DNA of 62,183 bases, filler included, from Sphacelaria rigidula (Eukaryota), in assembly GCA_964200075.2 (NCBI GenBank). It is 3 parts of 3 records of this genome, joined end to end, with 100 filler letters (N's around TTAATTAATTAA, not from the genome) between each part and the next. Parts side by side here need not be neighbours in the genome. Positions count along the whole stretch, not along the records: positions 20,769 to 41,429 come from CAXNAA020000504.1; 2 more parts are not named here. One strand, written 5' to 3'. The notes under the pieces were generated by a model. The model did no database searches, had not been told where the DNA came from, and saw only the letters and a program-made list of their open reading frames with translations. The position numbers and the translations under genes were made by a program. Within the stretch, counting starts at the first letter, position 1; every line of letters begins with the position of its first letter. Below, one piece after another: positions 20,769 to 57,600 of this stretch.

Positions 20769-22034
20769 TCACACGAATATTCATGTTATGCTCCCGCTAC
20801 TGTCCCCGCGCGAATGATTCGTCACCCCATCGATCAGCATGAAGTGCTCCACAAAACATACCATGTACAACCCATCTATCATCATCCGCGGCGGACTTTC
20901 GCATACACTACTGTTGACACCGGACACACCGCTCGCACGATTACCTTCTATCCACCCTACGTACGCGCGGACAACAAACTGAATGTGGATCGGAACGATC
21001 AGCACGCCCCCACCCTCACTACTTCCGAGGCTTCCACGCAGGCGAAGTCAGAATTTACTTGGGAATAAAGGGGGCGCACTCCCCCTTCGTCAAACGCAAC
21101 ACACACAAATAACTCAACCAATGACGGAAATGAAGAGGACGCACTCGCTGTCGCCAACGTCATCTACAATGCAATTGCGCCCTTGCAAAAACAGCAACTG
21201 AGCCTTCGATTTGACTGCGAAACGTGATACAATCGTAACACGCACTACTAGACAATAGCCTCCACTCGAAGCTGCACAGAGTCATGAGATGAAAACACTC
21301 TTTGCTGTCAACAGCCACGGCGCCTCGTCTGACGGCAGTTTCCGACGGTACGTTTTGGCTGCGTGAACCTGGAACGACGAACTCATCGCTTAGGTGCATG
21401 ACTCGCCCGAGGATCACGTACCCTACGTTGTTACAAGATCTCGTGTCGAGATGAAGCGTCTTGGCAGTGCTGCTTCTACTACGCGGGCGTGTCAGTTAAC
21501 TCCCACCGCACCGTCGCGGACGTGTTGGATGACATCCGGCGCACCGCCGGGTCGCCGCCCGCACACATATTTCACCATGCCGTTGCCCTTTCGCCTCTTG
21601 CACCCCCTACCTCGCCTCGACGGTGTGCTCCAAGGCTCATGTTTTGGGACAGTTTGTCCACGCCGAGTCTTGTTCCTGCTTTGCAGCATGTCGTGGTGGA
21701 ACGAGAGGGTCGGAGAGTCGACAGCGCGAGGGGCGTTCGTTGCTCGAAGTATACTCGACAGCGAAGGGTACAAGCTTACTACAACGGTGGAGACACGGTG
21801 CATGAGGAGATGCGGTGAGCAACGCGGGATTGACTCTGCAGACCCATGGCGAAGAGCACGCGGGAAACGGAGGCCGACACTGCCTTGCTCCGTCTCTTGT
21901 CTTTCCTCTTTCGCGCGGTGTCGGCACCGGACATCCCTTGCGAGAGGACACCAGGCAACAACAGCTGTATGAAAAAGTACTAATCGTCACCGCACGCAAT
22001 CACAGTGCCCCATGCATACCGGAGTCGGACTTAC

Positions 22035-25000
22035 AGTCATCGCTCTCCTTGCTGTCTTTGTCATCTTTGCTGTCCCTGTCATCCTTGCTGTCCTTGCCGC
22101 CCCTCCTCCTCTTGCCACCCCTCTCCCTCTTCCCGCCCCTCTTCTTGCAGCAGTCGCGCTTGTCGCAGTCACCGTCGCATGTGATGTCGCCCCCCACAGA
22201 CTTCCACCCCTTGGGACAACGGTAGTCGCGGCACTTCTTGTCTTCTGTCGCAGCCAGACGGAACCACAGGGTCACCCAATGTGAGGAATATCAAGCTAGA
22301 AGTGTTCCCGACGCAGCAGTCGTCGATCGCATCGTATCGACATCACATCTCGGGATACCCTTGACGGCAAGTCGCTCGCTCTTGTCGAATACTAGTTCAA
22401 ATATACTCTTGACCATACAATGCACTGGACAGACTGTCGGCGACAGATACCGCCTGCTCTTAGTTCACCTCGCGGCGGCGCCAACCCGGGCGCAGCAGCG
22501 TCATCAGGTATTTGAACCAGTGGTGGCGTGGGCATCACACTCGATGATATCGACCGCGACTGCAAGTACCGGGTCTTCTACACTGCTTACCCTTCTCGCA
22601 ACACTCGCGCTTGTCGCATTCGTCGCGGCACTTCTTGTCACCGACGTTTTGGAAGCCGCTGGGGCACGTGTAGTCGTCCTTGCACGTCTTCACCTCTGAG
22701 GATGACACGGGAGGTAGCAAGAGAACGCCATTGTCGCGTCAAGTAACAGTGGCACGCTACGGAGGGACAGGCCAAGCGAGAATGAAGCTCCATCTTTCCC
22801 CACCCCTGCTTCTAGCGGGGACACCTGAAACGTTTCTTTTCTTCTTCTTCACTGGTTGTAAAACGCGTACAAATCTGCATGGCATGTGATTCATATCGAA
22901 GTTACAGCGAAGCCCCAGGTAGTCTGGTGCCCGGTTTGTTGTCGCCACGTCAAGGTCGCGATCGGGACGAATGGGTAATCGAGATTGACGCAGGGGATGC
23001 ACGACTCGTCATTCCACATCCGCAGAGAACAAGTGTTCCCAGTATTTCGGCCGACGCTTTTGGTTGCATCCAAGTCAAGTGTCGATTACGACTGCTGGCA
23101 TCGGATCCTCCGAATACTCACCCTTCTCGCAACATTCGCGCTGATCGCACTTGCCGCTGCACTCCTTGTCACCGCGGTTGAGGTAGCCGTCAGGGCACTT
23201 GAAGTCGTCCTTGCATGTCTTCACCTCTGCGAAGAATACAGCAGCGGACGGATGAACGTCACTGTGGCGTTCGAGCTACAGTAACATATTGTGCGTGAGT
23301 TCTGAAGATGTGCGGTGGACCGCTCCACTGTGCCCCTGTGCCGTGCACCGATACGTTCGACAGGGACTATCGCACAGCATGGTTGTTGTTACACGAAAGT
23401 GCTGCCGTTGGTGCTGCGCTTCTGCCCCCCCAGGGTCTACACCACAGTCACGGCATCAGACGCCGGGTCCTACGATAGGGACGGGGAGTCTGCACGATCC
23501 TACCCCGTGTTGATGAACCTCTGTGTGGGAAACACATTGTCAAGTGATTTTTGATACGTGCATCATGCTGACATCGAGTTCTACTCGCATGAGAGCTGCT
23601 TCCAGCGACGTTGTACCGAGCGAGTGTACCATCACGACTTTCGGCGACACTGACAACACGTTGTGACTCATGTCTGATGACTGATCTCTGGTGACTCTTG
23701 TTTTCGTGTCGTAGCAAAAACGCTCCGGACCATCATCGATCACACAGCCGTGTTGATCGTCCATGTGAGACCTACATAACCCGCAGTGTGTAGCGAGCGT
23801 CTTGTGCTGTGGAGCGTACCCACAGCGAAGACCGGCCTTGGGGTATTGCGTTTTTCGTTGACTCACCCTTCTCGCAACACTCGCGCTTGTCGCATTCGTC
23901 GCGGCACTTCTTGTCACCGACGTTCAGGAAGCCGCTGGGGCACGTGTAGTCGTCCTTGCACGTCTTCACCTCTGAGAATGACACGGGGGGTAGCAAGATA
24001 ACACCATCGTCGCGTCAAGTAACAGCCGCGCACTACGGAGGCACGCTACGGAGGAACAGGCCAGGCGAGGATGCAACTTTGTATTGCTTCACCTCTGCTT
24101 CTAGTGGGGAAAAAAACTAAAACGTGTTCTTTTCTTCTTGTTCGCTGTGTATCGGTGTTGCAACGGAGCCACGAATAGTCTGGTGAAGCCCAGCTTTTTG
24201 TCGCCCAGTCAAGGTCGCGATCGGGACGAATGGATCATGACGTGCAAGGCTTTCACGTCTGGGAGGTTTCCTCTCCGTACGGGTTTCAAGTTCGAAGTAT
24301 AGAACCAATTTCCGCGACAACTCTGCAGAGTTGTCCCTCGACCACGATAGTGGCTTCGGTTCTCGAATGTTCAGCCCAAGGTATCATGACATCATATTTG
24401 GCGTAGAAATTGATGCATCGGAGACGAGTGTCTACATGTCGACGAGTCCAGTTTTCTATCCTGCATCCCGACCTCGGAATTTCTGCATCGGTCTCTAGGT
24501 TCAGAGATACCGTTGCACCGACGCGAGGGGTGCACGACTCGTCATTCCACATCCGCATAGGACGAATGATGTCCCCAGTATTTTGGTCAACGTTTTTGGT
24601 CGCATCCAAGTCAAGTGCCGGTTACGACTGCTGGCATCGGATCCTCCGAATACTCACCCTTCTCGCAGCACTCGCGCTGGTCGCACTTGCCGCTGCACTC
24701 CTTGTCGCCGCGGTTCCGATATCCGCGGGGGCAGGTAAAGTCATCTTTGCATGTCTTCACCTCTGCGAAGAACACGGCAGCCGACGAATGGATGTCACTG
24801 TGGCGTTCGAGCTACAGGAACGTATCGCACGGCATCGTTGTTGTTCCACGAAAGTGCTGCCGTTGGTGCTGCGCTTCAGCCCCCCCAGGGTCCACACCAC
24901 AGTCACGGCATCAGACGCCGGATCCTCCTACGATAGGGGCTGGGAGTCTCGTACGACCTCACCCCGTGGTGACACCTTCTACGTTAGCCCCCCCCCCCCA

Positions 25001-28000
25001 AAAAAAAAACCGGCTCAAAGTGCCACGAAACAAGTGGCCACACAGCGCCTGATGTTCGGGTTCAGGCTGCATGAGACACCTTCTGTCATGTTGGCGACAT
25101 TGGCTACAACGAACCCAAGCGTGGGAATTCCCAGCCTCTCGTTGTGCTCGGCTTTTCCCATTTCGATTTACGTGAAGATTTTGCCTCCCAAAACCATGCA
25201 CTTTTTTGGGGGGGAGGGGGCTATCGTAGAAAGTGTCTGGTGATGAACCTCTGTGTGGGAAACACACTGTCTAGTGGTTCTGATGCGTGCATCATGCTGG
25301 CATAGAGTTCTATTCGAATGAATGCTGCTGCTTCAGCGACGTTGTAACGAGTGAGTGTACACGAGTGGCCAGTGGGGTGCCTGCAACCTCAAATGTGGAC
25401 GTTACAAATGATGCACAACGTCTGTAACGTCCAAATTGGAGGTTGCAGGCACCCCAGTGGCCACCCGTCTACCGTCACGGGGCTTCGGCGACACCGACAA
25501 TACATTTTGTTTGATGATTGATCTCTGGTGGCTCTTGTTTTGGTGTACCAGCTAAAACACTCGGGACAATCAGCGGTCACACAGCCATGATGACCGTCAA
25601 TATACGACCTACGGAATCCGCAGTGTGAAGCGAGCGTACTATGCTGTGGAGGACACCCATAACGAACACCGGCCTTGGGGTATTGCGTTTTCGTTGACTC
25701 ACCCTTCTCGCAACACTCGCGCTTGTCGCATTCGTCGCGGCACTTCTTGTCACCGACGTTCAGGAAGCCGCTGGGGCACGTGTAGTCGTCCTTGCACGTC
25801 TTCACCTCTGAGAATGACACGACAGTCAACGAACGGGTCTCATCTCGGCGTGAAGTATCAACTGTACACCACTGGAGAAAAAGCCATGTCGGAATAACGC
25901 TTCATGATTTGTTGCACTTCTTATCATTTTGAGAACACCCAAACAATGCGCACACAACCATGTATTGAGATGTGATTCAGAGCGGTATCGATGTCCAAGC
26001 CGAAGGTATCTAGCGATGCTCGGCTCTCCGTGTCCAAGTCAGGGTCGCGATCAGGGCGACTGATTCGAAGAGAGAACGGCTCTCGCAGTCGAGAATCGAA
26101 GTTTAGGCTCGTTTTAGCCGATAGTTGCGGGAGGTGGCACGATTTTGAATCGAGGAAACCTACAGTTTGTTGACCCCATTGTGATCTAGAAACGCATGCC
26201 GGTATATATGTTAGTGTACTTCCTGTCACTCCACACGGGCCTCAAAAATGACCGACTATTCCGCGCTCCCCAGTTCGAAGGGTTTGCCTGTTTTGCTCAC
26301 GCACGCCTTGATGTAGGCGAGGGGCCGAAAACAATCCAGGGAGCCCGAAAATTGTCGTATTTCGCCCGATTCCGGGCGGGAAAATTACACAACCGGCCCA
26401 CTCTACTTGCTCTACTTGCTGATCGCATTCCAATCAGACGTCGATCGCGACTGCAGATGTCGCGTCTTCCAAGACACTCACCTTTCTCACAACACTCGCG
26501 TTGGTCGCACTTTCCACGGCACTTCTTGTCACCGCGGTTCAGGAAGCCGCGGGGGCAGACGAAGTCATCCTTGCATATCTTCACCTCTGCAACGAAAACG
26601 GTATCCATTGGCTGAGTGTCGTCGTGGCATGCAAGCGAGCATTGCATGCTATCTATCCCTGACCTTTCATGATGTGATGTTGACTGTTCTTCACGGTGTA
26701 CCGATACACCTCTGATGTCCTCCAAGTGATCACGTTATTTACTCCACCACGCCGTTTCGCCACATGCATGACCTGCACGTTGTACCGAGCTCTACTGTCC
26801 CGTAGACATTTCCATTCTCACTCCACGTGAAACTTGTAACAGGCACGTGGGCCAGCTGCTTCGAACGTGTCAGTGCCATCAACGATCAACTGGAGAGTTT
26901 GCTTCCCCCAGACACTCACCCTTCTCGCAACACTCGCGCTTGTCGCAGTCGCCGCTACACTCCTTGTCGCCGCGGTTCAGGAAGCCGCTCGGGCAGGTGT
27001 AGTCGTCCTTGCATGTCTTCACCTCTGAGGCGGACACGACAGCGGTGACGTTCTCTTGAATGAGATACGGTAGCTGGTTTGTAGCACGCGAGATCTGCGG
27101 TTTGCGTTAAGCTTGCTTCTTCGTCCGCTCATGCTGGATTACTCCGGCTTTGCAGGCAACTCGACCCACTCTTCGATCGAGTGGGGTGCTCCACTACACT
27201 GTGATGACCAACGTACTGGCGACGGTGACTAATGCATGACGACTCGTGACGCGTGGCACTACAGCGTCCCGACAGCATCTTCGATGTATCTGGAGGGTGG
27301 CTCGGCAGAAAAAAACACGACGTTCGCGCCCGGCCAGGAGCAAGGGTGGTGACAAGAGGGTCCCCCCTCGGTCGTCATGGTCCTTGTGCTGTATGCATAC
27401 CCTCAAGATGATGGCAAAATGTTTTATAATGATAGCTGATCGCTTGGACCGTACTCAACCCGATTGTACACTACAGCTGCAGGTATTGCTCCTTCCAGAT
27501 CCTTACCCTTCTCGCAGCATTCTTTCTGGTCGCACTTTCCACGGCACTCCTTTTCTCCGAGGTTGAGGTAGCCGCGGGGACACTTGAAGTCGTCCTTGCA
27601 CGTCTCCTTCTCTGTAACGGCCAAAGGGCATCAATAAATCACCCGCGTTGCCTCGTTTCGCCGGATCTTCCATAGACCAAACATTTGGCCGTTCAAAACG
27701 AAGGTCGTGGTCGACGGCACAAATGCGACTGGATTGTTGCACACGCCTGTTGGGCGTGGGCGATGCGTCTTCAACACGTTGCATCCCATCGACAACAGCG
27801 GGGCTATGTGTGTACTGTCTGTGCACTGCAACTCTACGCAGTGCTTCCCGAAGACACTCACCCTTCTCGCAGCATTCGCGCTTGTCGCACTTGCCGCGGC
27901 ACTCCTTGTTACCGACATTCAGGAAGCCCCTGGGGCACGTGTAGTCGTCCTTGCAAGTCTCCACCTCTGCGACGGACACGGAAGCCAAGCGGTGGATGTC

Positions 28001-31000
28001 GTCATCGCGTCCAAGCAACGTTCAAGCGTAATGGGCCACTTTCACAGCGGAGAACGCACCGGTGAAACCCAGGGTTCTTCACCTCGACACACTTTCAACT
28101 ACTTCAAACCTGATCTGTTCCATCTAGGTCACATTTTCGGTTATCTGCGTATTTGTATGGGTTTTAGAGGCGTATACTTGGATCAGGTGAATGTTGACCT
28201 CGTACTCGGATCACGTGTAGTGATCTGAAGCGATCTAGATCATATTCATATCACCTTTTACCGAGATGAATCCGAGATCTGGGACGCATGCCTCTAGCGG
28301 TACACGTGTGACACATGAGTATACCGAATCGGACCAGTACACCTGCACCGCGTCAACTCGCATGCGCATCTGCCGAGAACGGAACTCGCAATACTCGGGC
28401 CTAACGGTGCCAGCTGTACCATCAGGCCACCGGGTCGCGGAGAAAACTCCCTCATGAGTACGAATGCCTCGTACACGCTTACAGGCATCATAATTACGAT
28501 TTGGTAAACTCTCACCAGCGCCATGTCGTATTGTTTGCGTCCAACGTACTGCGCCATGTCCGCGGCCACCAAATTTCTTGTCAACGGCGAAAATACATTT
28601 GCACCAGTTCTTCATCCCACCTCTGCAACATCAAGGGCACGCGATATCGACTGCAGTCGATAGTAGGTATCGCTCCTGTCGGGTACTCACCCTTCTCGCA
28701 ACATTCGCGCTGGTCGCACTTGCCGCTGCACTCCTTGTGACCGCGGTTGAGGTAGCCGTCAGGGCACTTGAAGTCGTCCTTGCACGTTTCTTTTTCTGTG
28801 ACCACNNNNNNNNNNNNNNNNNNNNNNNNNNNNNNNNNNNNNNNNNNNNNNNNNNNNNNNNNNNNNNNNNNNNNNNNNNNNNNNNNNNNNNNNNNNNNNN
28901 NNNNNNNNNNNNNNNNNNNNNNNNNNNNNNNNNNNNNNNNNNNNNNNNNNNNNNNNNNNNNNNNNNNNNNNNNNNNNNNNNNNNNNNNNNNNNNNNNNNN
29001 NNNNNNNNNNNNNNNNNNNNNNNNNNNNNNNNNNNNNNNNNNNNNNNNNNNNNNNNNNNNNNNNNNNNNNNNNNNNNNNNNNNNNNNNNNNNNNNNNNNN
29101 NNNNNNNNNNNNNNNNNNNNNNNNNNNNNNNNNNNNNNNNNNNNNNNNNNNNNNNNNNNNNNNNNNNNNNNNNNNNNNNNNNNNNNNNNNNNNNNNNNNN
29201 NNNNNNNNNNNNNNNNNNNNNNNNNNNNNNNNNNNNNNNNNNNNNNNNNNNNNNNNNNNNNNNNNNNNNNNNNNNNNNNNNNNNNNNNNNNNNNNNNNNN
29301 NNNNNNNNNNNNNNNNNNNNNNNNNNNNNNNNNNNNNNNNNNNNNNNNNNNNNNNNNNNNNNNNNNNNNNNNNNNNNNNNNNNNNNNNNNNNNNNNNNNN
29401 NNNNNNNNNNNNNNNNNNNNNNNNNNNNNNNNNNNNNNNNNNNNNNNNNNNNNNNNNNNNNNNNNNNNNNNNNNNNNNNNNNNNNNNNNNNNNNNNNNNN
29501 NNNNNNNNNNNNNNNNNNNNNNNNNNNNNNNNNNNNNNNNNNNNNNNNNNNNNNNNNNNNNNNNNNNNNNNNNNNNNNNNNNNNNNNNNNNNNNNNNNNN
29601 NNNNNNNNNNNNNNNNNNNNNNNNNNNNNNNNNNNNNNNNNNNNNNNNNNNNNNNNNNNNNNNNNNNNNNNNNNNNNNNNNNNNNNNNNNNNNNNNNNNN
29701 NNNNNNNNNNNNNNNNNNNNNNNNNNCTTGTATAATCGAAATTGCTAACCCAACGACAATCTGACCAAGAGCGGACCTCGACCAGTGCTGACTTGCGGAG
29801 TGAGCGGATTAGTCTAGCCCCCACATTCCCCACCAAGAGCATGGATATCGCCTTCTCAAGGCGTTGCACGTGAGTGTCGACGGCGGAACGATGCACGTCC
29901 TGTCCGTGCACCACAGCACGTGTCGCTCCTGACGGAGTTTCTCACCCTTCTCGCAGCATTCGCGCTTGTCGCACTTGCCGCGGCACTCCTTGTTACCGAC
30001 GTTCAGGAAGCCGCTGGGGCACGTGTAGTCGTCCTTGCAAGTCTTCACCTCTGCGATGTACACGGCAGCCAATGGGTGGGCGTCGTCATCGCGTTCCAGC
30101 GACGCTGATGCACTCTGTTACTGAAGAGTGGTGGGCCGCTCCAAAGAACAGTGAGTATGAATCGCCAGTACTGGCATCAGTGATGTACTCTCTAGTTCGT
30201 TGTTTTCGTCGTACTTCCAACCCTTCCTCTTCCTGGGGACGGGCCCGTGGTCTCACCGGGTACAGGGCTTAATTTCGGTATCGTAGGTTGGTTGAACATC
30301 CCCGCACGCTGCCCAGTCTCGTCAGATAGACTTCACAGTACAATCTCGTCACACCAGCAATATATGCGTTATTCCTACTGGGCAGCTCCATGCCCGCGTT
30401 CACTACCGTATGCGATATCCCAGCCCCCATCCGTCATATCCAAACCGAATGCTGTGGACCGCAGCTAACCGCAGGTGGGTACAACGTTGCTTCCTTTGGA
30501 AACTCACCTTTCTCGCAGCATTCGCGCTGGTCGCACTTTCCGCGGCACTCCTTGTCACCGCGGTTGAGGTAGCCGTCAGGGCACTTGAAGTCGTCCTTAC
30601 ATGTTTCTTTTTCTGTGACGCACAAGTAACGCCAATAGATCATGCAACGTGTCGCGCATGGGTATGTCAATCTCAAGCTTGCCTCATTCAGTAGGCCCTG
30701 CTTCGAAGCATCGTGGGTGGCCACGGCAAACTGGGTTCGGTACCGGCAGCATACGCGCTTGAGGTGTACGCAGTTCGTACGCATGACCCAGTTCTTGGCC
30801 ATTCAGGACCAATCCAATAGCTCCAACGCTGACCACCACGGGAGTTGCGCTGCCTCCGACACACGAGTCGATCATCCTCACGACACCCACATGTTCATGA
30901 TGTGCTGGTTGTTCCGGCTCTCTTTCGATGATTCCTCGCCACCAACGATATAATAATATTGCCATCTAAGACCAACTGACTCATCGTCGTTGCCGCGTCG

Positions 31001-31450
31001 TCGTGAAACTAGTGACTAGTGCACTATTTCCGATCCAACTGCGATGGTTTTGTACTGCGTGGGAAGACCGCGTGCTCAGAGCACCGCATGGTAGTTCATA
31101 ACACCCCAGGATAGACGCCTGTCATGACCAATCGGGCGGGTCTCTACAGGAACCATGCCTCTGACCCTAACCCCAACCTTCAACTCCAATGCAGCCCTCC
31201 AAGCACGCGGTTCTCCCACATATTACAGTTCTTCTCGAATAACGTTCCGATCCGGTTTTCGCAAGTGGTGGGCATTCCTCATCGATTTCAACTGTCGACT
31301 CATCGTCCACCACCAAGACATGCAACCGTCTGGACGTCGCTTACCCTTGAAGCAGCAGTCGTACTTGTCGCACTTGCCGCGGCATCTCTTGCGGTCGTCG
31401 CCAATTGGCTTCCAGTCGCCGGGGCAAGAGAAATGCTTGCACCTGTCACG
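22035..31450 (-). CDS. Cysteine-rich tandem-repeat protein, one 6-Cys module per exon (14 modules visible; start and stop unresolved)
   Basis: Exons in transcription order: 31345-31450 (divergent, RDRCKHFSCPGDWKPIGDDRKRCRGKCDKYDCCFK); twelve 105-nt cag|...G|gt exons at 30508-30612, 29946-30050, 28691-28795, 27862-27966, 27507-27611, 26920-27024, 26482-26586, 25703-25807, 24658-24762, 23867-23971, 23122-23226, 22591-22695 (consensus EVKTCKDD[YF]xCPxG[FY]LNxGDKxCxGxCD[KQ]RECCEK); and 22035-22244 (divergent module plus K/R/G and D/K/S tail, then a GTAAGT donor or read-through to TGA at 22000). All exons are open and have canonical splice sites. Confidence 0.9.
24242..24518. mobile_element. MITE-like insertion, GTGCAA...TTGCAC ends
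   Basis: Absent from the paralogous intron at ~22985; flanked by TGAC/CGAC (near 4-bp TSD). Confidence 0.6.
24971..25237. mobile_element. MITE with TIR GACACCTTCTACGTTAGCCCCC / GGGGGCTATCGTAGAAAGTGTC, 4-bp TSD TGGT
   Basis: TIRs and TSD visible; empty site in the paralogous intron at ~23508-23511. Confidence 0.85.
25360..25469. mobile_element. Tc1/mariner-type MITE (110 bp, TA TSD)
   Basis: Near-perfect palindrome TA|CACGAGTGGCCAGTGGGGTGCCTGCAACCTC...GAGGTTGCAGGCACCCCAGTGGCCACCCGTC|TA; empty site gagtgTAccatcac at ~23627; second copy at 39275-39489. Confidence 0.85.
28806..29726. other. Assembly gap inside the cysteine-exon array
   Basis: ~920 N. Confidence 0.99.
31051..31227. mobile_element. 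TGTA...TACA MITE with telomere-like core (degenerate copy)
   Basis: tgtactgcgtgggaagaccgcgtgctcagag ... accctaacccc ... aagcacgcggttctcccacatattaca; flanks GTTT/GTTC. Confidence 0.7.
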
Positions 31451-33309
31451 CTGCTTTGTGGAGCGAGTAAACCAGTGTAGGCGAGAAGCAAACGGCACAC
31501 ATGTCGGTGACCAGTAATGCATCACAAGCCCGCAAAACATTGGTCAGCGTTTGTGTCTCTTGCCCTTCAGTTTTAAATGGGCAGCGACGAAGCTTCTGGT
31601 ATACATGTCCTCTCGTTTTAGGCCTCACCTTACGTATGCTGCCTCTGCGGTGCCAATCGCACGCGAACATTCGCATTGCCCGAGGAATGCTGCCGAGTGG
31701 AATATACGTCGTGAAAGCGTGTACTAACGTGAAATAAATTGCGATGCCTTACCATGTGGCACATCATGCATACGGTGTGATGGCACTCTCCGCTCTACAG
31801 CTCTGCACACCCGGGCCACGGGCATGCGTCGCTACCGCACACTGAGAAGGGCATGACAAGCGACCGGTCTGAAACCAGATAATCTGGGCAAAGGCACTTT
31901 TGTCCTCCTTTTTTTTTCCCCAGTGTGGCTTTGTGGCCATGGGCGCTAGATTTCCAGCTGGTGAAAGAAACAAGACGTGCTTGCCAACCTGTGTTGAATG
32001 AAGCCACACTAGAGCAAAGAGACGTTGACCATACAGGGAGCTCCGTAGATGAGAATTTCGGGCCCTCCTCACGGGTGATATTTCAACTTTTGCGTGCCAA
32101 AATGTTTCCTGTGCTCAGTCAGCCTATTTGATACTGGTACAGTACACCAAACCCGAGTGATTTGGTCTTCTCCGGTATAATGTCGAGCAGTTTTGGCTTG
32201 TCCTGGATATACACCGACCATGAAGTTGTCGATCACTCGATACAAGTCATTACCCCCGTACAGGTATGTCCCGGTCTGCCATCTTGTGTCACTTGGTCTA
32301 ATGTTATGAGGAGAGTAAGAGCTACAATGCAAAAGATGACAATGCAGGAAAAGAAATACAAACGCAGGGGAATAAGGACCACCAGTTGTTCCGAGCTCTT
32401 CCGAGTCACGCTGTGTCCCCGATCATATTGGTTCAAGTACACGACAACTCTAGTGCTTGCAGCGCTTTTCTCGGCATGCGATGCAAGCCACCGTGTGGCA
32501 CTTTACAACCTCTCGCACACACAAGGGCTGGGGGGCTGTGAAATAAGTTGGCCTAGATCGCCACAGAGGATCCCAAAAATCCCTCCGACAGCACAAAACA
32601 TCCTTTATTGAGAACGTCTGGTTCAGCGCAGCCGTTGTACGGTGTAAAACGCGTCCAGGATCTCCTTCTTACATCCCCTACTTTGGGTGCGTGGCAAGCG
32701 CACGCGAGAAACCGTAGTCTAATCACGTGCTCCTCACGTGTTTCACCGACAAACAGCAGCAGTACCCGAGTGCAACAACAACAAGGGCACAGCATGTATC
32801 ATTCTTTTAGTACATTATTAATGCCAGGTCGTAATCTTGAGGTGACGCGTCTACTTGTGAATTACCCTGATTGGCTCGTGAAGGCCTAATATCTTCCGAA
32901 AAAAGGTGTCCCAACACACTATCCCGAAATATAGGGCCTGGAGTCAGTCCTGATTCCCCCACATGACTGTTGTAGTCTAGAGTCAGGTTTTGGGTTCTTG
33001 TTCGACACCCCTTCCTGGGGACATATAACATCTCGTGGGTTCCACGCCCCCCTTACCCCTCTACCCCCCCCCCCCGCCAAAACAAAAAAATCCTCCAACA
33101 AATTTCAACTCCTTGAAGGTATAGTAACTCGATTCCAATCGCGCCCCCCCCTCCCCCAGTACCATACTAAACTCAGGATCGTGACCACCATGAACTGCAC
33201 CGAATGCAAGTAAGTGGGGAGTGATGCCGCGAAAGCCACTCTCGAACCAGCCCAGTGACGAAAATGCCGCATGAAGCAGCTGGTTCTTGGCCGCGTGAGG
33301 CGCCTCATG

Positions 33310-33833
33310 TGGGCGACATAGGTAGAGGAGGCTTCTTTCCCATAGTGTTGGTGCGGTGGTTTTTGCCCCTATTTTTTATCGTGAGGGGGATCCCGTAGCC
33401 CCTTCCCCTCGTCGACCATCGGGTCGAAATTTGTGCACTGTAACCTCGGCCAGAAAAAGTGCTGCATCCTGCTGTTTGAGGGACTTCCCAGCCGCACTAC
33501 CCTCAGCTTCAGTTATCAGCCTTCACGACATACATTTCATTATCCGGTGTGCCCTTGTGGGCACAGCGTCATAGATCCGCCAGGGTATCATCGCCGTGTT
33601 CCCAGTCATTATCCAGAATCCACCTAGTATCCTGCAGATTCCACATGTTCGCGGTCATTATCCAGATCACTACCAAATCAACGTGGCGGCTTCATTTCGT
33701 CAGTGCCCACGACATAGTTGCCCTCCCCTGTTGAGCATTGCGTGAGAAACAATCTCAGATCGCTTCCAGGTTTGAATCCACGACCCCACCGTCAGAGGGT
33801 TTCGAGATTACCGACTAAGCCATCGGGGCGACC
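33310..33833 (-). mobile_element. tRNA-derived SINE, second copy (interrupted)
   Basis: Head GGTCGCCCCGATGGCTTAGTCGG...GGATTCAAACC; body matches 8330-8525 with an internal insertion at ~33440-33700. Confidence 0.7.
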
Positions 33834-34110
33834 GACAGTGACCCACGTGTAGATCTCGCCTCCCCAAACCAGTCACTGTCCCGGGGGGCGCTATCGCAGC
33901 ATTAGTCTGGTTCACCATCATCAATAGAGTGATCTCATCGTTAGCGTCACTCACCACATGGACATTTGATGCAGTAAAACCAACGCTGGGTGTTGTTGTC
34001 CACAACGCCCAAGGAAACGACTTATATTATGGTGCCAAACTGAACCAATGTGATTCGGCTTTTCGACCCCCAGGGTGGCTCATCTGTTTAATCGTCCAAC
34101 ATGGTCGTTG

Positions 34111-34305
34111 TGTAATGCGTGAGAGGACGGCATCGGAATTTGAACACCTCTATAGCTAAGGTTAGGGTTAGGGTTAGTGTTGGGGTTTGGGTCAGGGGTG
34201 TGGTACCTGCAAGGACTGACCCGATTTGTTTTGGAAAACGTCGATCCTGAGGTATTTCGAACTACGGCGCGGTCCTCTGAGCACGCGGTCCTCTCACGCA
34301 TTACA
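34111..34305. mobile_element. TGTA...TACA MITE with TTAGGG core
   Basis: TIR TGTAATGCGTGAGAGGAC / GTCCTCTCACGCATTACA; TSD GTTG; internal ggttagggttagggttag. Confidence 0.9.
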
Positions 34306-35768
34306 GTTGGCCACCACCGCACCCTTTCAGCTCGGCGTATATGCGTATATACTGTACAAAAACAACAAAACAACCATCCGATCCCCTCTGTGCTACACGT
34401 GCAACATCGGCATGTCAATGTACGGCAGTGCGCGAGATTTATACTATACATCACCTTGCGGCCACGGGAGGTGAGGTCGCGATGTGTGTCTGCTGGGTCA
34501 AAATCCTCCTGATTAGCAATTCCGTGCTCCCCGCCTGCCGGCACGAGGCCGCAGCGAACACGAGTAATAAAGGCAGACGTTGGGGTTAGGTCAGCGCATG
34601 ACGCCACCAATGTGATACACGGCGGAGACGAGACACTTTTTCACCATGTCGGTGTACCGTCTTAGCAGCCAGCCTAGAAGCTTGAAACCTCCTACCGAAC
34701 AGTTCTCGACAAGCGCAGCGACATATCACGAAGTTTACCTACTCTTGTCATCGGGGGATCGCCATGCTTGTGCTCCGATAGCTTCCCTGTACTCGAGGGT
34801 GTTCACACAAAGCATAATGTCGTGACTGCCCACATCGGAGTGAAGAGAACGTGGGTTGAATTCCCACCAGATGCATTTCTTCCCTTTCGACATAGAGTAT
34901 TTCCATCGTCGAACGCGGGAGGATGTAAAGAAACATGAATTCAGCCCTGGAGACCACGGATTCGTCGTAAGGAAAGGGAGGGGTACATATTGTGTGACGA
35001 AAAGAATCGTGTGCCGATGACATATCAGACACGGGATTCTACAAATCGGGGATGGATCTTTTATTTGGGGATGAAGACCCGGGGGATCGAAGTCTTCGTA
35101 CCATACTAAATCTTCCAAGTACGCTTCCATTCCTCCCCTAGCTTGTAGCTTCTGACAACCACTACACGCCATACAAGTTTGGATCCCGATAAACCGAAAT
35201 GTCGGGGTCTCAGGTGAACAACCAATTTTGGCGTCCGATCGGACACCTAAAATCGCTCAAATTTGGGGGGTATGCGCGGCCCTCTAGGGGCAAAGAAAAA
35301 AGCCTCTGGAGATGTTCAATCCCTCTGGAGGAAAGCCAAAAATCTTCTCTGGAGGGTCGCGCACTCCTCCGGAGGCGTTTAATTCCCCTCTGGAGACTCG
35401 AAAATTTTACCCACCTGGAGGAATTTTAGAGGTGGCCAAATGGACGCGTGTGCGATGATTGGTTGCTGTGATACCACCCCCTTGCTCCCCCCGAAAAGTG
35501 CCAACAGAAATCGCTTCTTGCAAAAGTGATATCGTGACATCTCAGATGGGAACGTGAAACATCCCGTTGACAGCGGGATGACGGAGGTCGTGACAGACAA
35601 GTCAACACAATCGAACGTGAACCTGAGGATCGTATTGCCCTCCTGAACCGAAACACACCGCTCATTTCACTGCTGCTCATCAGCCGGGCATGCTGTGCTC
35701 GACCCTGCTCAAATCGGTTCAGAATTCAGGGAGAACTCCGACTTGCGTGAGACGCGCGCATTGCACAC

Positions 35769-35985
35769 TGTAATGCGTGAGAGGACCGCGTGCTCAGAGG
35801 ACCGCGCCGTAGTTCGAAACACCTCAGGATCGACGTTTTTCAAAACCAATCGGTCCAGTCCCTGCAGGTACCACTCCCCCAACTATAACCCCAACACTAA
35901 CACTAACACTAACCCCAACCCTAACCATGGGAATGTTCAAATTCCGATGCGGTCCTCTAAGCACGCACTCCTCCCACCCATTACA
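35769..35985. mobile_element. TGTA...TACA MITE with CCCTAA-like core
   Basis: Same TIRs, opposite orientation to the 34111 copy; flanks ACAC/GCAC. Confidence 0.9.
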
Positions 35986-37045
35986 GCACGCTCAGAAACA
36001 GTCAGCAACAGCACGTTTGCGGTTGCTATTTGACACGCACGCGGCCGTCTTTCATCCAATACTGGACGGATTTCCGTCAAACAAGGGCTGTCGTGTATAG
36101 ATGGTGAGCTAGCGCTTGAGCTAACAACGCGTGTGAGTGCTGGGTGTTTATGCGTCGGTTTTCGTGGCTCGATGTTTTGGCGCTGTGTCACCTCGTTGCG
36201 TCTAGTCCGCAGCGGTACACAGAGATGTTGGACTAACGGCCACTCTCAGAACCGCCGCATTCTTTACTTGTGTGCAGATCTGGGCTTCGATCTGGACAAA
36301 ACTGCTTGTCGATACCACGAAGCACTGGTCGTTGGGGGGCAAACACTTCTCCAGAAGTGATTTTACGAAAAGTGATGGGAGTCACATCCGATAAGACCCC
36401 GCCTGATGCGTGCACAGCACTCATGCTCTCGACCATCCGAGAAAAAAATAGTGCGGACGGGTCAAAAACGCGCGGATTCGATCCGACCGCACGTTTTCGA
36501 CACGAAAACAATGTGGTAAGTCACGGCCGGAATGAAGCGCGAAGAACACAGTATTGGGGGTTGGCGTAGAAAAAAGGCTTCGCTCATCCTGGGGAAAGGA
36601 CTGGGCTACGTGATGTTTCTCTGCTGTCCCACAATTTCTCCACAAAATTCGAAATATGACGCCGCCAGTGACCTGTAGACGGAGGCGACAGGGCCTTGGC
36701 CAGTAGTAGTAGGTATCACCACCTGGTAGAGTGGTTCTCAGTGCTGTTACTTTGTGTCCGGAGAGCGAAAACCACATCTTCAGTGAAGCTTGCCGTCCCG
36801 GTAAGGGCACCCAGCGTGAGTTGGACGCGTTTCCGCCAAAAGCAGCGCCGGGTTTGCCGACGCCACACTTTGCCTGGCAATCTCTCTGCCCCAGCCCTCG
36901 CTCGAGAGTTCTCGGTATGTCTTGGGCTGCGATGAGATTATACCAAGTGATACCATCACCTCGCCTTGGCCGGTCCCGCTTGTAGCAAGTATTCATGCAT
37001 TCAAATATGAGTTTCGATTTTGAACCCCAGGTATACAGTGTGGTC

Positions 37046-37260
37046 TGTAATGCGTGAGAGGACCGCGTGCTTCCAGGACCGCATGATAGTTCGGAACACC
37101 TTGGGGCCGACGTTTTTCAGAAACAATCGGGCCGGTCCCTGCAGGGACCACGCCCCTCACCCGAACCCCAACACCAACCCTAACCCTAACTAACCTCATC
37201 CATAGGGGTGTGCAAAATACGATGCAGTCCTCCAAGCAAGCGGTCTACTCACGCATTACA
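37046..37260. mobile_element. TGTA...TACA MITE with CCCTAA core
   Basis: Same TIRs; internal accctaaccctaac. Confidence 0.9.
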
Positions 37261-37558
37261 CGATCGACCCCATCGAACCCGGACTCGAAATTCAAGACTG
37301 TGGAGTTCGTTGGGCGGGGCACATGTCCCATTTCTCTCAGGATGACACCATTTGAAGTTTCAGGCAGTCGTGCTACAAGACGAGGGGGATCAAAGCTTCA
37401 GGGGACGGACGTTGGGCAGAAGTCGGACACGAACGTCACATTGATACTCGTGGCACCGGCTCCACGCGGTAACGCGACGTCAATTCCGAGATGGGCCTAC
37501 CAGCGCGCTACTCGTTCTCGCGAAAGCTCGAGGCATTTATATGTACACCGGGGCATGG

Positions 37559-37764
37559 TGTAGTGCGTGAGAGGACCGCGTGCGTAGAGGACCGCGCCGT
37601 AGTTCAAAATACCTCAGGATCGACGTTTTACGAAACCAATCGGGGTCAGTCCCTGCAGGTACCACGCCCCTGACCGTAACCCCGACACTAGCCCTAACCC
37701 CAACCATAGGGGTGCTCGAATTCCGATGCGGTCCTCTAAGCACGCTGTCCTCTCACGCATTACA
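37559..37764. mobile_element. TGTA...TACA MITE with CCCTAA core
   Basis: Same TIRs; perfect 5-bp flanking duplication CATGG. Confidence 0.9.
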
Positions 37765-37861
37765 CATGGTATATGTACCTGCCACATGAATCCGCAGTAG
37801 CAACACAGGAGCAACCCCACATATAAATGATGTAGTCAGCTCGCAGTATCGAGGATATCGT

Positions 37862-38054
37862 TGTAATGCGTAAGAGGACCGCGTGCTTAGAGGACCGCAT
37901 TCGAATTTGAACATCCGTATGGTCAGGGTTGGGGTTAGGGTTAGGGGCGTGGTACCTGCAGGGACTGGTCCGATTGGTTTTAGAAAACGTCGATCCTGAG
38001 GTGTTTTGAACTACGGCGCGGCCCTATAAGCACGCGGTCCTCTCACGCATTACA
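37862..38054. mobile_element. TGTA...TACA MITE with TTAGGG core
   Basis: Same TIRs; internal ggggttagggttagggg. Confidence 0.9.
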
Positions 38055-38780
38055 CCACCATCAGTCCAGAAAGGACAGTTCAATTCAAATAGTGGGCACC
38101 TGAAACGAGCGTAGGAGGTCGATCGTCCAAAACACCGCCGTGGGTGACCCAGAGAAGTGTGCGGTGCTCAAGTCGCATTATCCGCGGGATACAAACAGCA
38201 CGCTATAGCAATGAGCTGCCGAATATGTGTGTCCTTCCATAACGACGCACTTCAACTGTTCAAATATAATCTGGGGGCTAGCCTGCCCAACTTGGTACGA
38301 GTACAAGAGGTTCAATCATCCACCCAAGTCGCCACGCGACGCCCGTTGAAGTGATACTCGAAATCTCAGTCATCAGCTGCTCACTCAATACCAGCAAGCA
38401 GGTGCAGTGAAAGCCTGCGCGTCGTCAGCAACACACGATTGTATACTCGTTCGGATAATTTCAACACACTCATCCGCTATGGAATACTATATACCATTAC
38501 ATCACCAGCGCTCGGAACAAATCCCACCGCACTGTGTGCACTGACCTTCAGGTTCAACAACAGCGGTGGATCCACATGCCATACCCAGCAACAGCAAAAA
38601 AAAGGCTGTTTTCTCGCCTCGGATCTTCATGGTAGCCCTTGCTCTCGAGAAGTGAAGCTGCTAGGAGGTCGAAGGTGGTGTGAAATTGCTGTTGCACAGT
38701 ACACCGGAACGGGAGTAGTCTTGGTGAATGAGAGAGGAAGGGGTTGGGGTGTGGGATGCGGGGATGGGGGGGAGGGGGCG

Positions 38781-38815
<35 letters not shown>

Positions 38816-38900
38816 GAGGGAATAAAAAAATGGGATATATTCCCCGGGGGCGGGGGGGGGGAACGGTTTTTGTTTTTTTTGTTTTTTTTNNNNNNNGAGT

Positions 38901-38971
<71 letters not shown>

Positions 38972-39274
38972 AGGCACGACTGAACGGCATATCCAAATTG
39001 GAATATTTCACCCGGTGCCGAGCGGAGTATACGTCTTGTATTCTGTCCGTTTTTTCTCATATATGTGTCGGGGTATTCACGTCTGTGTGGTGCAGGTCTG
39101 AAAACCCGCAGTGGAGAAGGCCGAGTTTGAGGCGACCTGAAGTTTCGGGCGTAGATCTCAGGTTGATTTTTTTGAACAAACAACAACAAAAACACCGTTA
39201 ACCCTAACCCTAACCCCAACCCCGACCCGAGGAGTACGAGACCCGTGGGCAACAGGCGTGCATGAGTTCCCCTA

Positions 39275-39489
39275 CACGGGTGGCCACTGGGGTGCCTGTA
39301 ACCTCAAATTTTGACGTTAACCCTTAGACCGCGGTGGGCATAGTCCATTTGGATCACGCATACTTTCTTCAAGTGAAAATTGATGCCGATTCAGCAGGTG
39401 ACCTACCCTCGCAGGCTAAGGGTTAAGGCGTTGTGCAACGGCTGTGACGTCCGAATTCCAGGTTACAGGCACACCAGTGGCCACCCGTG
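39275..39489. mobile_element. Tc1/mariner-type MITE (TA TSD) with nested piggyBac-like MITE
   Basis: TA|CACGGGTGGCCACTGGGGTGCCTG...CAGGCACACCAGTGGCCACCCGTG|TA; removing the nested element and one TTAA leaves ~109 bp, matching 25360-25469. Confidence 0.85.
39321..39422. mobile_element. piggyBac-like MITE
   Basis: TTAA|CCCTTAG...CTAAGGG|TTAA. Confidence 0.8.
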
Positions 39490-40222
39490 TAGGCAAAGTG
39501 TGCGTTGGTTGGCAGACCTCACATCGATGCCGCAGGCGCTCATTTCGACAAAAACACGTTGTGGACGAGCTGGGTCCACCGCTCACCTGTCCCACACCAG
39601 AGTTTACCCCCGTCGACATTGTTCCGGGAGAATCTTCCGGCAGTTCATGCGCACAGCTCCACGTAAAAACGAAGGAGTGTGGTTGGATACAAAAAACGGA
39701 AGTTCGTAGTAGTGCACCGCAGCAAAGTACACCCAAGCCGAGGGTCCCCTACCGAGACTACTCTGACCAGCGAATGAACTACGGTGACGAATGGTGTTTC
39801 TGGTAACATTGCTTCCTCGTTTCTGACATGAAGGAAGGGTCACCCACGTGACGATTTCTCCACAGCAGCCAGCATTCTGAACAGAGCGCTGTTCGAGCAA
39901 CAAATATGCACTTCGTGGTACCGGAAAACGGATAGGAACGGGGGTATCCGCCCACCCCCGATGGACATCTATTGACTGCTCCTCGGTCCATCGGTGCCTA
40001 ATTCCTTTTCCCTTTCAACCCCTCCCCTTCCCCAGGATGAGTTCGAAGATAGCAGTCCAGTGTACGCACTATGCCGAAACATATCCACCAAGCCAAAATC
40101 GCTTCGTTCCTGGTCCACGGGGGAGAAGAGTGGAATCCCCCCCGTCGCGGGATTCTTTCTGATGATCTCAGCACATGCCGTATGCATTCTATCGTGTTGG
40201 TCCTATCCGGCAGGGGTCGCGC

Positions 40223-40444
40223 TGTAATGCGTGAGCGGACCACGTGCCTTTCGGACCGCATCGGAGTTCCAACACCCCTATGGTTAGGGTTAGGGTTAGG
40301 GTTAGGGTTAGTGTTGGGATCAGGGTCAGGGACGCGGTGCGGTCCTTGAGGGGACTGGCCCGATCGGTCTTGAAAATCGTCCGTCACGGGGTGTTTTGAA
40401 CTACGATGCGGTCCAAAAAGCACGCGGTCTGCTCACGCATCACA
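40223..40444. mobile_element. TGTA...CACA MITE with (TTAGGG)4 core
   Basis: Same TIR family; internal ggttagggttagggttagggttagggttag. Confidence 0.9.
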
Positions 40445-41429
40445 ACGCGTCCTCGACTTCTCGTACACAACAGCTGCTCATGGTCAGTCTACCACACAAG
40501 GTATAGTCTGGTACACTAGAAAATCGAGAGGCATGCACATTAGAACAGCGTACGCGCCAAATGGTCTTGAAGTAGCGACTCACCCTTCGAACGCCGGGGT
40601 AAGGCCGTCTGGGTCTCACCTTCATTTTTCTACTGGAAACAATGCTTACTCAACACGTGAAGGGCCTTCCCGGATGATGGAAGGATCAAGGCACATACAT
40701 CGGTGTTGGGGTTTCAAAATCGACATAGCAACGGTGCTGGTCTGTGTGGCTACTCTGTTGAGAATCTGGACGAAGCTGTTTACGAATATATATTCACTGC
40801 GTTGGAATGAAGTCGTCGCAGCAAGACAAGCAAGCGCTAAAACTTATGGCGGTTCAACAAAATCACGATCCACGTATCTTTTTCACCGAGTGCCTACTTC
40901 TTGGTAATCTATATATAGTCCACGCAAGGATCAGTCGAAAACAAATTTCGGGACACGTAGGCTGCCCCCCCCCCTCCCGGAGGACATTTTTTCGGAAATT
41001 GCCATGATTTTTTCGATTTTTGTTCTTGTCAAGTTTGTCACAAGGAATTGACCACTGAACACTGTTTTGATTATTTCTGTTAATTTTGTTACAAGAAATT
41101 TATCACTGAACGTTGACAATGACCGAAAAGTCTGATGGGCTTTGTGGGGTTCGTATATCTGCTTCTGCTCCTTGCCCGTTCTGCCCGTTCCGTCCCGATG
41201 ACCTCAGATGCCGAAGGGCGTTTTTTCGACAATCAAAATTATCCTGATTTATTTTTTCCCTGTTAACTTCGTTGCAAGAAATTGATCAATGAACATTGAC
41301 AAAATCCGAAAGGTTTGGTGGACTTTGCGGGGTGTATGTTTCACACTCTGGACAATGTGTGTGTTGTGTGTTGTCGTCCCATTTATTCTGGACACCAGTC
41401 TACACCTTTCGGTGTATGTGGGTGCATCA

Positions 41430-41713: not shown

Positions 41714-47843
<6,130 letters not shown>

Positions 47844-57100: not shown

Positions 57101-57600
57101 ATGGCCACCCATGAAAGCGCCAACTCACCGAAAAACCTCTTTTGTGCGTGAGACATCCACTGCAACGGCCCGTATCCCAAATCTGCCCAGTGTTGCCATT
57201 TCGCAGACAGCCTAAACTTCGATCTCTCTACACACTGCATACCCGCAGTCTCCCGAACGTCTTCAGCAGCTGTCACAACCTCCCCCTGAGTACCACTCGA
57301 CTGAATGTTGCCACATTTGAGCTTTGCTCCAGCTTTGGCGTAGCCCCTTCGCTTGATACTGGAAGGACGAAAAATGGACAAGCACAGACTTTCGCCATCG
57401 TCGGATTTGACAATTGCGAGCCATCTCTCTCCACGTCGGGTCACCACGGATGTTGCTGTGGTGGGAGCAATCGCGGTACTTCCGGAATGTGGAACTTCGA
57501 CTCTCTCGCCCGACGGAAGCGACTTGCCCGCTCTGAAGAGTACTCGGCAAGAGCAAAGTCCTGCACTGGTGCTGGACAAGGGACAGCGTGCTGTTTGTGT
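51126..57600 (-). CDS. Large multi-exon protein with C-terminal ZZ-type zinc finger; N-terminal part unassigned
   Basis: Well supported: 51934-52128 (...YQCDVCGRVMPCDTERYHCEICEDYDL|gtaagt) joined in phase 0 to 51126-51269 (cag|CQGCFLAH...HAESHEV...TAA). Probable upstream exons lie in the long minus ORFs ~52948-53800, ~55150-55510, ~55960-56233 and ~56538-57600. Further candidate exons up to ~60250 are unresolved. Confidence 0.65.

Follow-up and report, generated by a model that had tools for sequence, protein, structure and literature searches.

The genome of the brown alga Sphacelaria rigidula holds, within a 62,183-nucleotide stretch of assembly GCA_964200075.2 (parts of three records joined end to end and here called the window, positions 20,769 to 41,429 being drawn from CAXNAA020000504.1), a gene that is assembled like a string of beads. 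Twelve exons of a single length, each encoding one small module with six cysteines, follow one another between two divergent cap modules, and the whole forms one transcribed coding gene on the minus strand that occupies ~21.0 kb to 34.5 kb at the least, with a probable extension to 38.6 kb. From its sequence we consider it somewhat probable that the gene makes a secreted beads-on-a-string protein, stabilised by disulfides and located in the cell wall or extracellular matrix, whose modules are conserved by purifying selection. Below we set out the evidence for the array, its expression, its history and its isolation among known protein families, and weigh this reading against other uses to which a cysteine-rich string of modules might be put.

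A six-frame regular-expression scan of the whole window placed every module on the minus strand and returned 12 matches to the strict pattern C-x5-C-P-x-G-[FYW]-x7-C-x3-C-x4-C-C, against none in 200 mononucleotide shuffles, together with one loose match at 22147-22233. Each of the 12 strict modules occupies an exon of its own, exactly 105 nucleotides long, with cag as acceptor and either gtgag or gtaag as donor, and all 12 are laid out identically and in the same frame, with the acceptor followed by 11 nucleotides, an 87-nucleotide cysteine core, a further 7 nucleotides and the donor. The first two nucleotides and the last one belong to split codons, so that the introns are in phase 1-1. When a nucleotide profile of these exons was run with nhmmer over all 62 kb, it recovered only the same 12 (E 1e-28 to 1e-32) and the two caps: capC at 22141-22228 (E 5e-6) and capN at 31351-31444 (E 1.9e-8), the latter carrying a C-x4-C-P-G spacing missed by the regular expression, its exon being picked up by nhmmer. 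Relic or reversed copies of the exon were found by this search neither in the introns nor elsewhere, in either orientation. The array had been proposed in a sequence-only reading of this DNA, and it is confirmed: pattern matching and inspection of the flanks agree on 12 exons of exactly 105 nucleotides with one 35-residue module each and intact splice sites, the two divergent caps and a tail rich first in K/R and then in D/K/S lie where that reading put them (capN at 31345-31450, capC at 22035-22244), and its limits of 22035 and 31450 coincide with exact exon ends. The claim that exons could be gained, lost or exchanged without breaking the frame likewise stands, as the phase 1-1, one-module-per-exon architecture is real.

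Contigs from public sequencing runs, aligned to positions 21000-34000, were used to follow transcription and splicing. Two runs from one study (X1, X2) and one from a second study (X5) were called RNA-like from their spliced joints and exon-biased cover, and one run (X8) is DNA-like; joints were recognised by CT..AC ends, that is, GT..AG on the minus strand. The joints 28795>29946 and 30612>31345 are present in X1, X2 and X5, and 22244>22591 and 30050>30508 in X1 and X2, while an unexpected joint at 21674>22034 (CT..AC, cut +1) appears in X1 and X5. None of the 15 among the joints listed occurs in X8, where introns and exons are evenly covered. Across the run of N's that interrupts the intron between the second and third core exons, RNA-like contigs pass directly from 28795 to 29946, and loose contig ends of X8 at 28802 and 29727 show that real DNA runs on into the gap. 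In X1 and X2 word depth, which is a poor measure of expression, spans 2,402 to 108,370 in 22 or 23 of the 24 bins that have any depth between 21000 and 31849; cover is little or absent in the intron-only intervals 24038-24471 and 27076-27509 and absent in the N gap, and over 31850-34000 word depth is 7 to 78. The gene is thus transcribed and spliced as had been predicted, with joints at the predicted boundaries in the three RNA-like runs and not in the DNA-like one.

The gene is longer than the interval 22035-31450, possessing at least one upstream exon as well as a 3' untranslated region (3'UTR) exon beyond the intron at 21676-22034 (Table 1). The stop codon itself is split over that intron, T on one side and GA on the other, the first two nucleotides of the 3'UTR exon completing it, and owing to this the protein is 11 residues shorter than the unspliced frame. 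The tail encoded by the capC exon is first basic (G/K/R) and then acidic (D/S/K). At 210 nucleotides in phase 1-1, half of it module and half charged tail, the capC exon is twice the length of a core exon, and fusion of two ancestral 105-nucleotide exons would fit its form. Towards the 5' end, loose contig ends at 31452 in X1, X2 and X5 continue with 20 letters that match the window once, at 34457-34476, with no match expected by chance, and on the minus strand a gt donor lies directly past 34455. The exon so located encodes an acidic stretch with basic residues at its end, just before the first module, and has no in-frame ATG. Two ATG-started hydrophobic N-termini are available as candidates on the minus strand of 34457-41400, and the one at 38630 opens with charged, then hydrophobic, then small residues; its exon, 38546-38630, has a donor phase compatible with the phase-1 acceptor of exon 34455-34534. 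Assembled in this way, the model encodes 580 residues and is open from the candidate ATG to the stop; of the 525 residues that span capN through capC, 84 are cysteine.

Table 1. Exons of the six-cysteine module gene, listed from its 5' end on the minus strand, with the sequence gap and the dispersed repeat copies that accompany it.
Feature	Position	Strand	Remarks
Candidate first coding exon	38546..38630	-	85 nt; ATG, signal-peptide-like hydrophobic N-terminus, phase-1 gt donor; putative
Upstream coding exon	34455..34534	-	80 nt if cag acceptor at 34535; 3' end from RNA-like contigs, 5' end putative
capN exon	31345..31450	-	106 nt, phase 0 to 1; divergent first module C-x4-C-P-G-D-W; joint 30612>31345
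Core e2	30508..30612	-	105 nt, phase 1-1, type B; joints 30612>31345, 30050>30508
Core e3	29946..30050	-	105 nt, phase 1-1, type A; joints 30050>30508, 28795>29946
921-N run	28806..29726	.	within e3-e4 intron (second to third core exons)
Core e4	28691..28795	-	105 nt, phase 1-1, type B; joint 28795>29946
Core e5	27862..27966	-	105 nt, phase 1-1, type A; 97% nucleotide identity with e3
Core e6	27507..27611	-	105 nt, phase 1-1, type B, gtaag donor; X5 contig exactly 27507-27611
Core e7	26920..27024	-	105 nt, phase 1-1, type A
Core e8	26482..26586	-	105 nt, phase 1-1, type B-like; X5 contig exactly 26482-26586
Core e9	25703..25807	-	105 nt, phase 1-1, type A; nucleotide-identical to e11
Core e10	24658..24762	-	105 nt, phase 1-1, type B
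Core e11	23867..23971	-	105 nt, phase 1-1, type A
Core e12	23122..23226	-	105 nt, phase 1-1, type B; mosaic exon
Core e13	22591..22695	-	105 nt, phase 1-1, type A, gtaag donor; joint 22244>22591 in X1, X2
capC exon	22035..22244	-	210 nt, phase 1-1; C-x4-C-P-K-G-W module, then tail; joints 22244>22591, 21674>22034
3'UTR exon	21000..21675	-	extends at least to 21000; X5 contigs cover 21000-21674
Short-repeat copies	31051-31177, 34116-34306, 35768-35985, 37045-37260, 37556-37764, 37862-38057, 40303-40445		both orientations

The modules are strikingly uniform. Their columns average 84% identity, 18 of the 34 are invariant, and individual modules are 65-94% identical to the first; the six cysteines are invariant at fixed spacing, as are one proline and one glycine, and histidine is absent. 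The core is composed of 17% cysteine, 17% lysine, 12% glutamate and 12% aspartate, includes CC pairs, and has linkers of the form E-K-E-[VK]-[KE] between successive modules. Two module types, A and B, alternate along the gene, and the introns record how this came about: intron i9 resembles i11, and i10 resembles i12, at 80-88% identity, so the latest growth was a tandem duplication of a two-exon (A+B) unit. Exons and their flanks tell conflicting histories. Exons e9 and e11 share every nucleotide, whereas identity in their 80-nucleotide flanks falls to 66% and 86%; the flanks of e12 resemble those of e10 (79% and 91%), yet the exon is 93% like e4 and 85% like e10, and in alignment its first 11 nucleotides and both its introns are e10-like and its interior e4/e2-like. 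Such disagreement argues for gene conversion between exons. The array therefore grew by two-exon tandem duplication and shows inter-exon gene conversion, and the DNA dynamics of duplication and exchange that had been expected of it are visible in the duplicated pair and in the converted e12. Over the 66 exon pairs, mean non-synonymous divergence (dN) is 0.129 and mean synonymous divergence (dS) 0.752, a ratio of 0.17, with within-type dN at 0.06-0.10. This ratio indicates purifying selection on the modules, which are conserved and not diversified.

Relatives of the module are few and short. A profile of the 12 modules, searched against 1.84 billion representative proteins at E <= 0.001, gave 23 matches, 13 of which were kept as family. 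Of the 13, two are NCBI entries titled 'unnamed protein product, partial [Sphacelaria rigidula]', and the other 11 are ENA fragments without a name, in each of which a single module reads through into intron-like sequence. The first NCBI entry (P0001, 61 residues) is the e3>e4 splice product at 61 of 61 positions, and no other exon pair yields it. The second (P0002, 97 residues) consists of a cap end, a single core module and a further cap, followed by a short basic tail; it is 55-62% identical to differing registers of the model, and is a paralog. Its form suggests that the family has a minimal three-module member, that the gene in the window is an expanded version, and that the ancestral gene was short; among 15 word-sharing candidates, no longer homologue of P0002 was found at E <= 0.001. 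The ten remaining matches (P0014-P0023) are bacterial proteins with Y-T-C-P-S-G-Y repeats, in which only profile positions ~6-27 align, and were set aside as partial or compositional, three (P0014, P0016 and P0023) having been inspected.

Domain and structure libraries were equally unforthcoming. In Pfam the only family with any signal was Shisa_N (PF13908), which one module of the window matched at 14.1 bits against a cut-off of 22 (E 0.051), the alignment spanning positions 13-37 of the 50 in the profile. When E was allowed up to 10, this domain matched 7 of 25 module sequences, with a best E of 0.0012. Membership of Shisa_N was rejected, as the match is below the cut-off, spans half of the profile, involves a minority of modules and is probably compositional. 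Shisa proteins, which are single-pass membrane adaptors of animals, have one such domain each, in which a C-P and a terminal C-x4-CC recur; both are common to the Sphacelaria module, which comes in arrays where Shisa has a single domain. At the same permissive threshold none of the 25 module sequences matched EsV-1-7 (PF19114) or any zinc-finger or metallothionein family, no LRR (leucine-rich repeat) or TPR (tetratricopeptide repeat) family matched the module sequences, and Pfam gave nothing in capN and capC. The best hits of a sequence-profile search of the PDB, complement factor H with E 0.29 and, over 11 residues, a granulin-like chain of oryzain with E 2.4, were both dismissed as chance. 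For one module, AlphaFold2 with 25 aligned sequences predicted a compact mini-fold (mean predicted local distance difference test score, pLDDT, 74). Foldseek found no match to it in the PDB at E <= 10, 35 residues being too small for this to mean a new fold, and VIA-align found no chain with Z >= 2 among 48,161, a result hardly informative for a query of this length. An AlphaFold2 model of the three-module P0002, made without an alignment, had a mean pLDDT of 54.9 and was not used; P0002 in the ESM Atlas reached a best feature score of 0.77 and a TM-score of 0.40, below the bars, with EGF, TNFR and Sushi only weak structural neighbours. That the module could be assigned to no named family is thus upheld, Pfam having given only sub-threshold matches and PDB sequence, Foldseek, VIA-align and Atlas searches having come back empty, and the module family is new and absent from any domain library. 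In the literature we found no report on exon shuffling in Sphacelaria, supplementary tables that possibly list the gene or its orthogroup lying outside the scope, and, within the same bounds, nothing relevant on secreted cysteine-rich repeat proteins of brown algae. In a source that mentions Sphacelaria rigidula, 'cysteine-rich' refers to EsV-1-7 (10.1101/2024.02.19.579948).

Six cysteines in rigid spacing with an invariant proline and glycine are typical of disulfide-rich extracellular repeats. The dN/dS ratio of 0.17, taken with the lack of relic exons, points to a conserved, probably secreted bead protein and not to an immune-like diversifier; from the model we infer the signal-peptide exon, the disulfide bonding, and the extracellular location and function of the product. 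Such a protein would begin with a putative signal peptide and a short acidic segment with a basic end, continue through 14 tandem 35-residue six-cysteine modules (a cap, 12 cores alternating between two subtypes, and a second cap) and finish in the charged tail. Purifying selection and gene conversion between exons would keep the array uniform, and the dense charge of the modules, with the bipartite tail, may bind anionic wall polysaccharides and cations. Several points weigh against a secreted wall or matrix protein. The candidate signal-peptide exon lies ~4 kb upstream, and no read joins it, contig cover having ended at 34000; the protein may be cytosolic. None of the runs called RNA-like is recorded as RNA. 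No homologue or structural neighbour connects the module with a wall or matrix, 35 residues being too small for fold searches, and a module with 17% cysteine and many aspartates and glutamates could bind metal instead of forming disulfides. Lastly, the joints between non-adjacent exons, to which we now turn, show that one linear isoform of one locus does not account for all the RNA-like contigs.

These joints raise the possibility, which we hold tentatively and as a complement to the secreted bead protein, that the locus is a cassette-exon system in which the spliceosome skips runs of phase 1-1 exons and so produces secreted proteins with 2 to 14 modules. Ten of the 15 among the joints listed (92 more joints exist) connect non-neighbouring exons, and none of this kind is seen in X8. 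They include a clean CT..AC joint from e3 to capC (22244>29946, four contigs in X1), one from e4 to capC (22240>28687, three contigs in X2), one from capN to e4 (28793>31345), and one from e8 to e13 (22697>26485) in both X1 and X2. Loose ends past e3 continue not into the start of e4 but into an exon start of the e9/e11/e13 type in nine records of X1 and of the e7/e10/e12 type in six records of X2. Furthermore, within their last 22 nucleotides e3/e5, e4/e12 and e13 can be told apart by one or two letters, so the odd joints are not all one mis-placed junction. Against this, the data are k-mer contigs, the short sides of the joints measure 20-32 nucleotides and the exon ends are near-identical; 2289 of the 4528 placed records of X1 fit two places, and a backward joint, 23220>22591, is best read as a mis-assigned normal e11>e12 junction, so such misplacement does happen. 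Template switching during library preparation also yields such joints in repeats, and several capC joints have extra or changed letters (CT, CATTTT), as would be in keeping with another haplotype, or a closely related paralog, that differs in exon count. Whether by combinatorial use of the 12 exons or by an array whose exons differ in number and order from haplotype to haplotype, the outcome might be a length-variable set of secreted six-cysteine bead proteins, a conclusion that is possible but doubtful. In the DNA-like run, two sites carry two letters each: 21564 in the 3'UTR exon (C>T, 805 of 1,422 depth) and 21974 in the 3'UTR intron (A>C, 196 of 814), which hints at a second haplotype or copy of the locus in that sample.

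Less probable, and in our judgement unlikely, is an intracellular metal-binding repeat protein, whether a metallothionein-like store or an array of zinc knuckles, in which the cysteines ligate metal. The core's cysteine content, its CC pairs and its abundant aspartate and glutamate are of a kind with such a protein, the N-terminus of the model is putative, and brown algae furnish a short cysteine-rich repeat with which to compare it. The EsV-1-7 motif of the IMMEDIATE UPRIGHT family contains a histidine and only three cysteines. It resembles the Sphacelaria module in being a short cysteine-rich repeat of similar length in brown algae; unlike it, the module has six cysteines, lacks histidine and has no PF19114 match, and the EsV-1-7 proteins are thought to be zinc-finger-like regulators. 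The EsV-1-7 cysteine motif is proposed as a novel zinc finger in a study that describes its family as having expanded in brown algae and as being largely confined to them (10.1101/2024.02.19.579948). The Sphacelaria gene departs from this picture not only in the failed searches against EsV-1-7, zinc-finger and metallothionein families and in the want of histidine, but also in the rigid six-cysteine spacing with invariant proline and glycine that resembles disulfide modules, and in the phase-compatible, signal-peptide-like candidate exon upstream.

The sequence-only reading had likened the gene to the diversifying recognition or immune-type genes of brown algae, in which exon shuffling makes variable binding surfaces. 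The background it invoked is in print: the available part of a study of Ectocarpus (Zambounis et al. 2012, PMC3341825) describes ROCO-LRR genes in which each LRR of 24 residues is a 72-nucleotide exon, repeats (LRR or TPR) attached to ROC-COR or NB-ARC domains, loci with positively selected sites and non-coding relic repeats in their introns, and a genome-wide screen in which exon shuffling was 'overwhelmingly restricted' to LRR/TPR loci. The likeness is genuine as far as gene structure goes, with one repeat per exon of equal length and a multiple of three, growth by exon duplication and exchange, and a home in brown algae; the symmetric one-repeat-per-exon plan matches that of the type I LRR exons (72 nucleotides, one LRR each; PMC3341825), and duplication and inter-exon conversion are both evident in the array. 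Beyond the architecture, the analogy to a diversifying recognition system finds no support, and we regard it as very improbable. The Sphacelaria module is a 35-residue six-cysteine unit and no LRR or TPR; dN/dS is 0.17, within-type dN is low, column identity is 84%, over half of the columns do not vary and e9 equals e11; the introns hold no relic or reversed exons; the model, with exons up to 38630, contains no ROC-COR, NB-ARC, kinase or transmembrane part, and hence no signalling domain; and gene conversion here homogenises modules and does not diversify them. Least probable of all is a polyprotein precursor cut between modules to release many 35-residue cysteine-rich peptides, for example antimicrobial or signalling ones, for although 12 near-identical small cysteine-rich units stand in a single reading frame, with a basic cluster just ahead of the first module and very high word depth over exons in the RNA-like runs, the core linkers contain no dibasic or other recognisable processing site.

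Animal extracellular mosaic proteins are built of phase 1-1 cysteine-rich modules, such as EGF-like ones, in accordance with Patthy's exon-shuffling rule (cited in PMC3341825 as Patthy 1999), and the kind of gene described here, in which symmetric phase 1-1 exons each carry a module and have multiplied in tandem, is one already known. Like those mosaics, the Sphacelaria gene has a small disulfide-type module per exon, symmetric introns and tandem growth; unlike them, it matches neither the sequence nor the fold of EGF, TNFR, Sushi, granulin or any other module, differs in the spacing of its cysteines and belongs to a stramenopile, and the signal peptide that such mosaics possess is here a candidate one.

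The DNA around the gene adds repeats and gaps of several kinds. A short repeat of ~130-220 bp, with copies 72-90% identical and in both orientations, recurs in the first long introns of the gene and upstream of it (Table 1), and looks like a dispersed MITE (miniature inverted-repeat transposable element) or SINE-like (short interspersed nuclear element) sequence. In the e9-e10 intron, the bin 24906-25339 has a word depth in X8 of 721,785 against ~1,000 elsewhere, with many loose ends at 25074-25238, and therefore contains part of an element repeated very many times. Identical gap patterns of 44 N's, 12 bases and 44 N's occur at 20669-20712/20725-20768, just downstream of the 3'UTR, and at 41430-41473/41486-41529, and are either scaffolding artefacts or masked stretches. 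Long G/C homopolymer-like tracts near short N runs, at 38554-39303 and 44195-44864, yield poly-proline or poly-glycine open reading frames (ORFs); they are low-complexity DNA and probably non-coding. Nine large ORFs elsewhere in the window, namely 56452-57804 on the minus strand (450 residues), 52882-53811 on the minus strand (309 residues) and seven more of 164-231 residues, matched no Pfam family at E <= 0.01, and the neighbouring genes therefore give no functional context.

The gene is effectively unannotated, public annotation amounting to a 61-residue piece (P0001) of a 14-module gene. As it stands, the Sphacelaria array is a clean stramenopile case of one module to one exon in phase 1-1, a rule familiar chiefly from the extracellular proteins of animals, and it widens brown-algal exon shuffling beyond LRR/TPR loci. 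Combinatorial use of its exons, or haplotypes that differ in how many exons they have and in what order, would make it the first brown-algal locus with exon cassettes or exon shuffling that is not an LRR/TPR gene, and one whose module family is without relatives beyond Sphacelariales-like sequences. Should the product prove to be a wall or matrix protein, it would be a candidate structural or polysaccharide-binding component of a cell wall whose proteins are poorly known.

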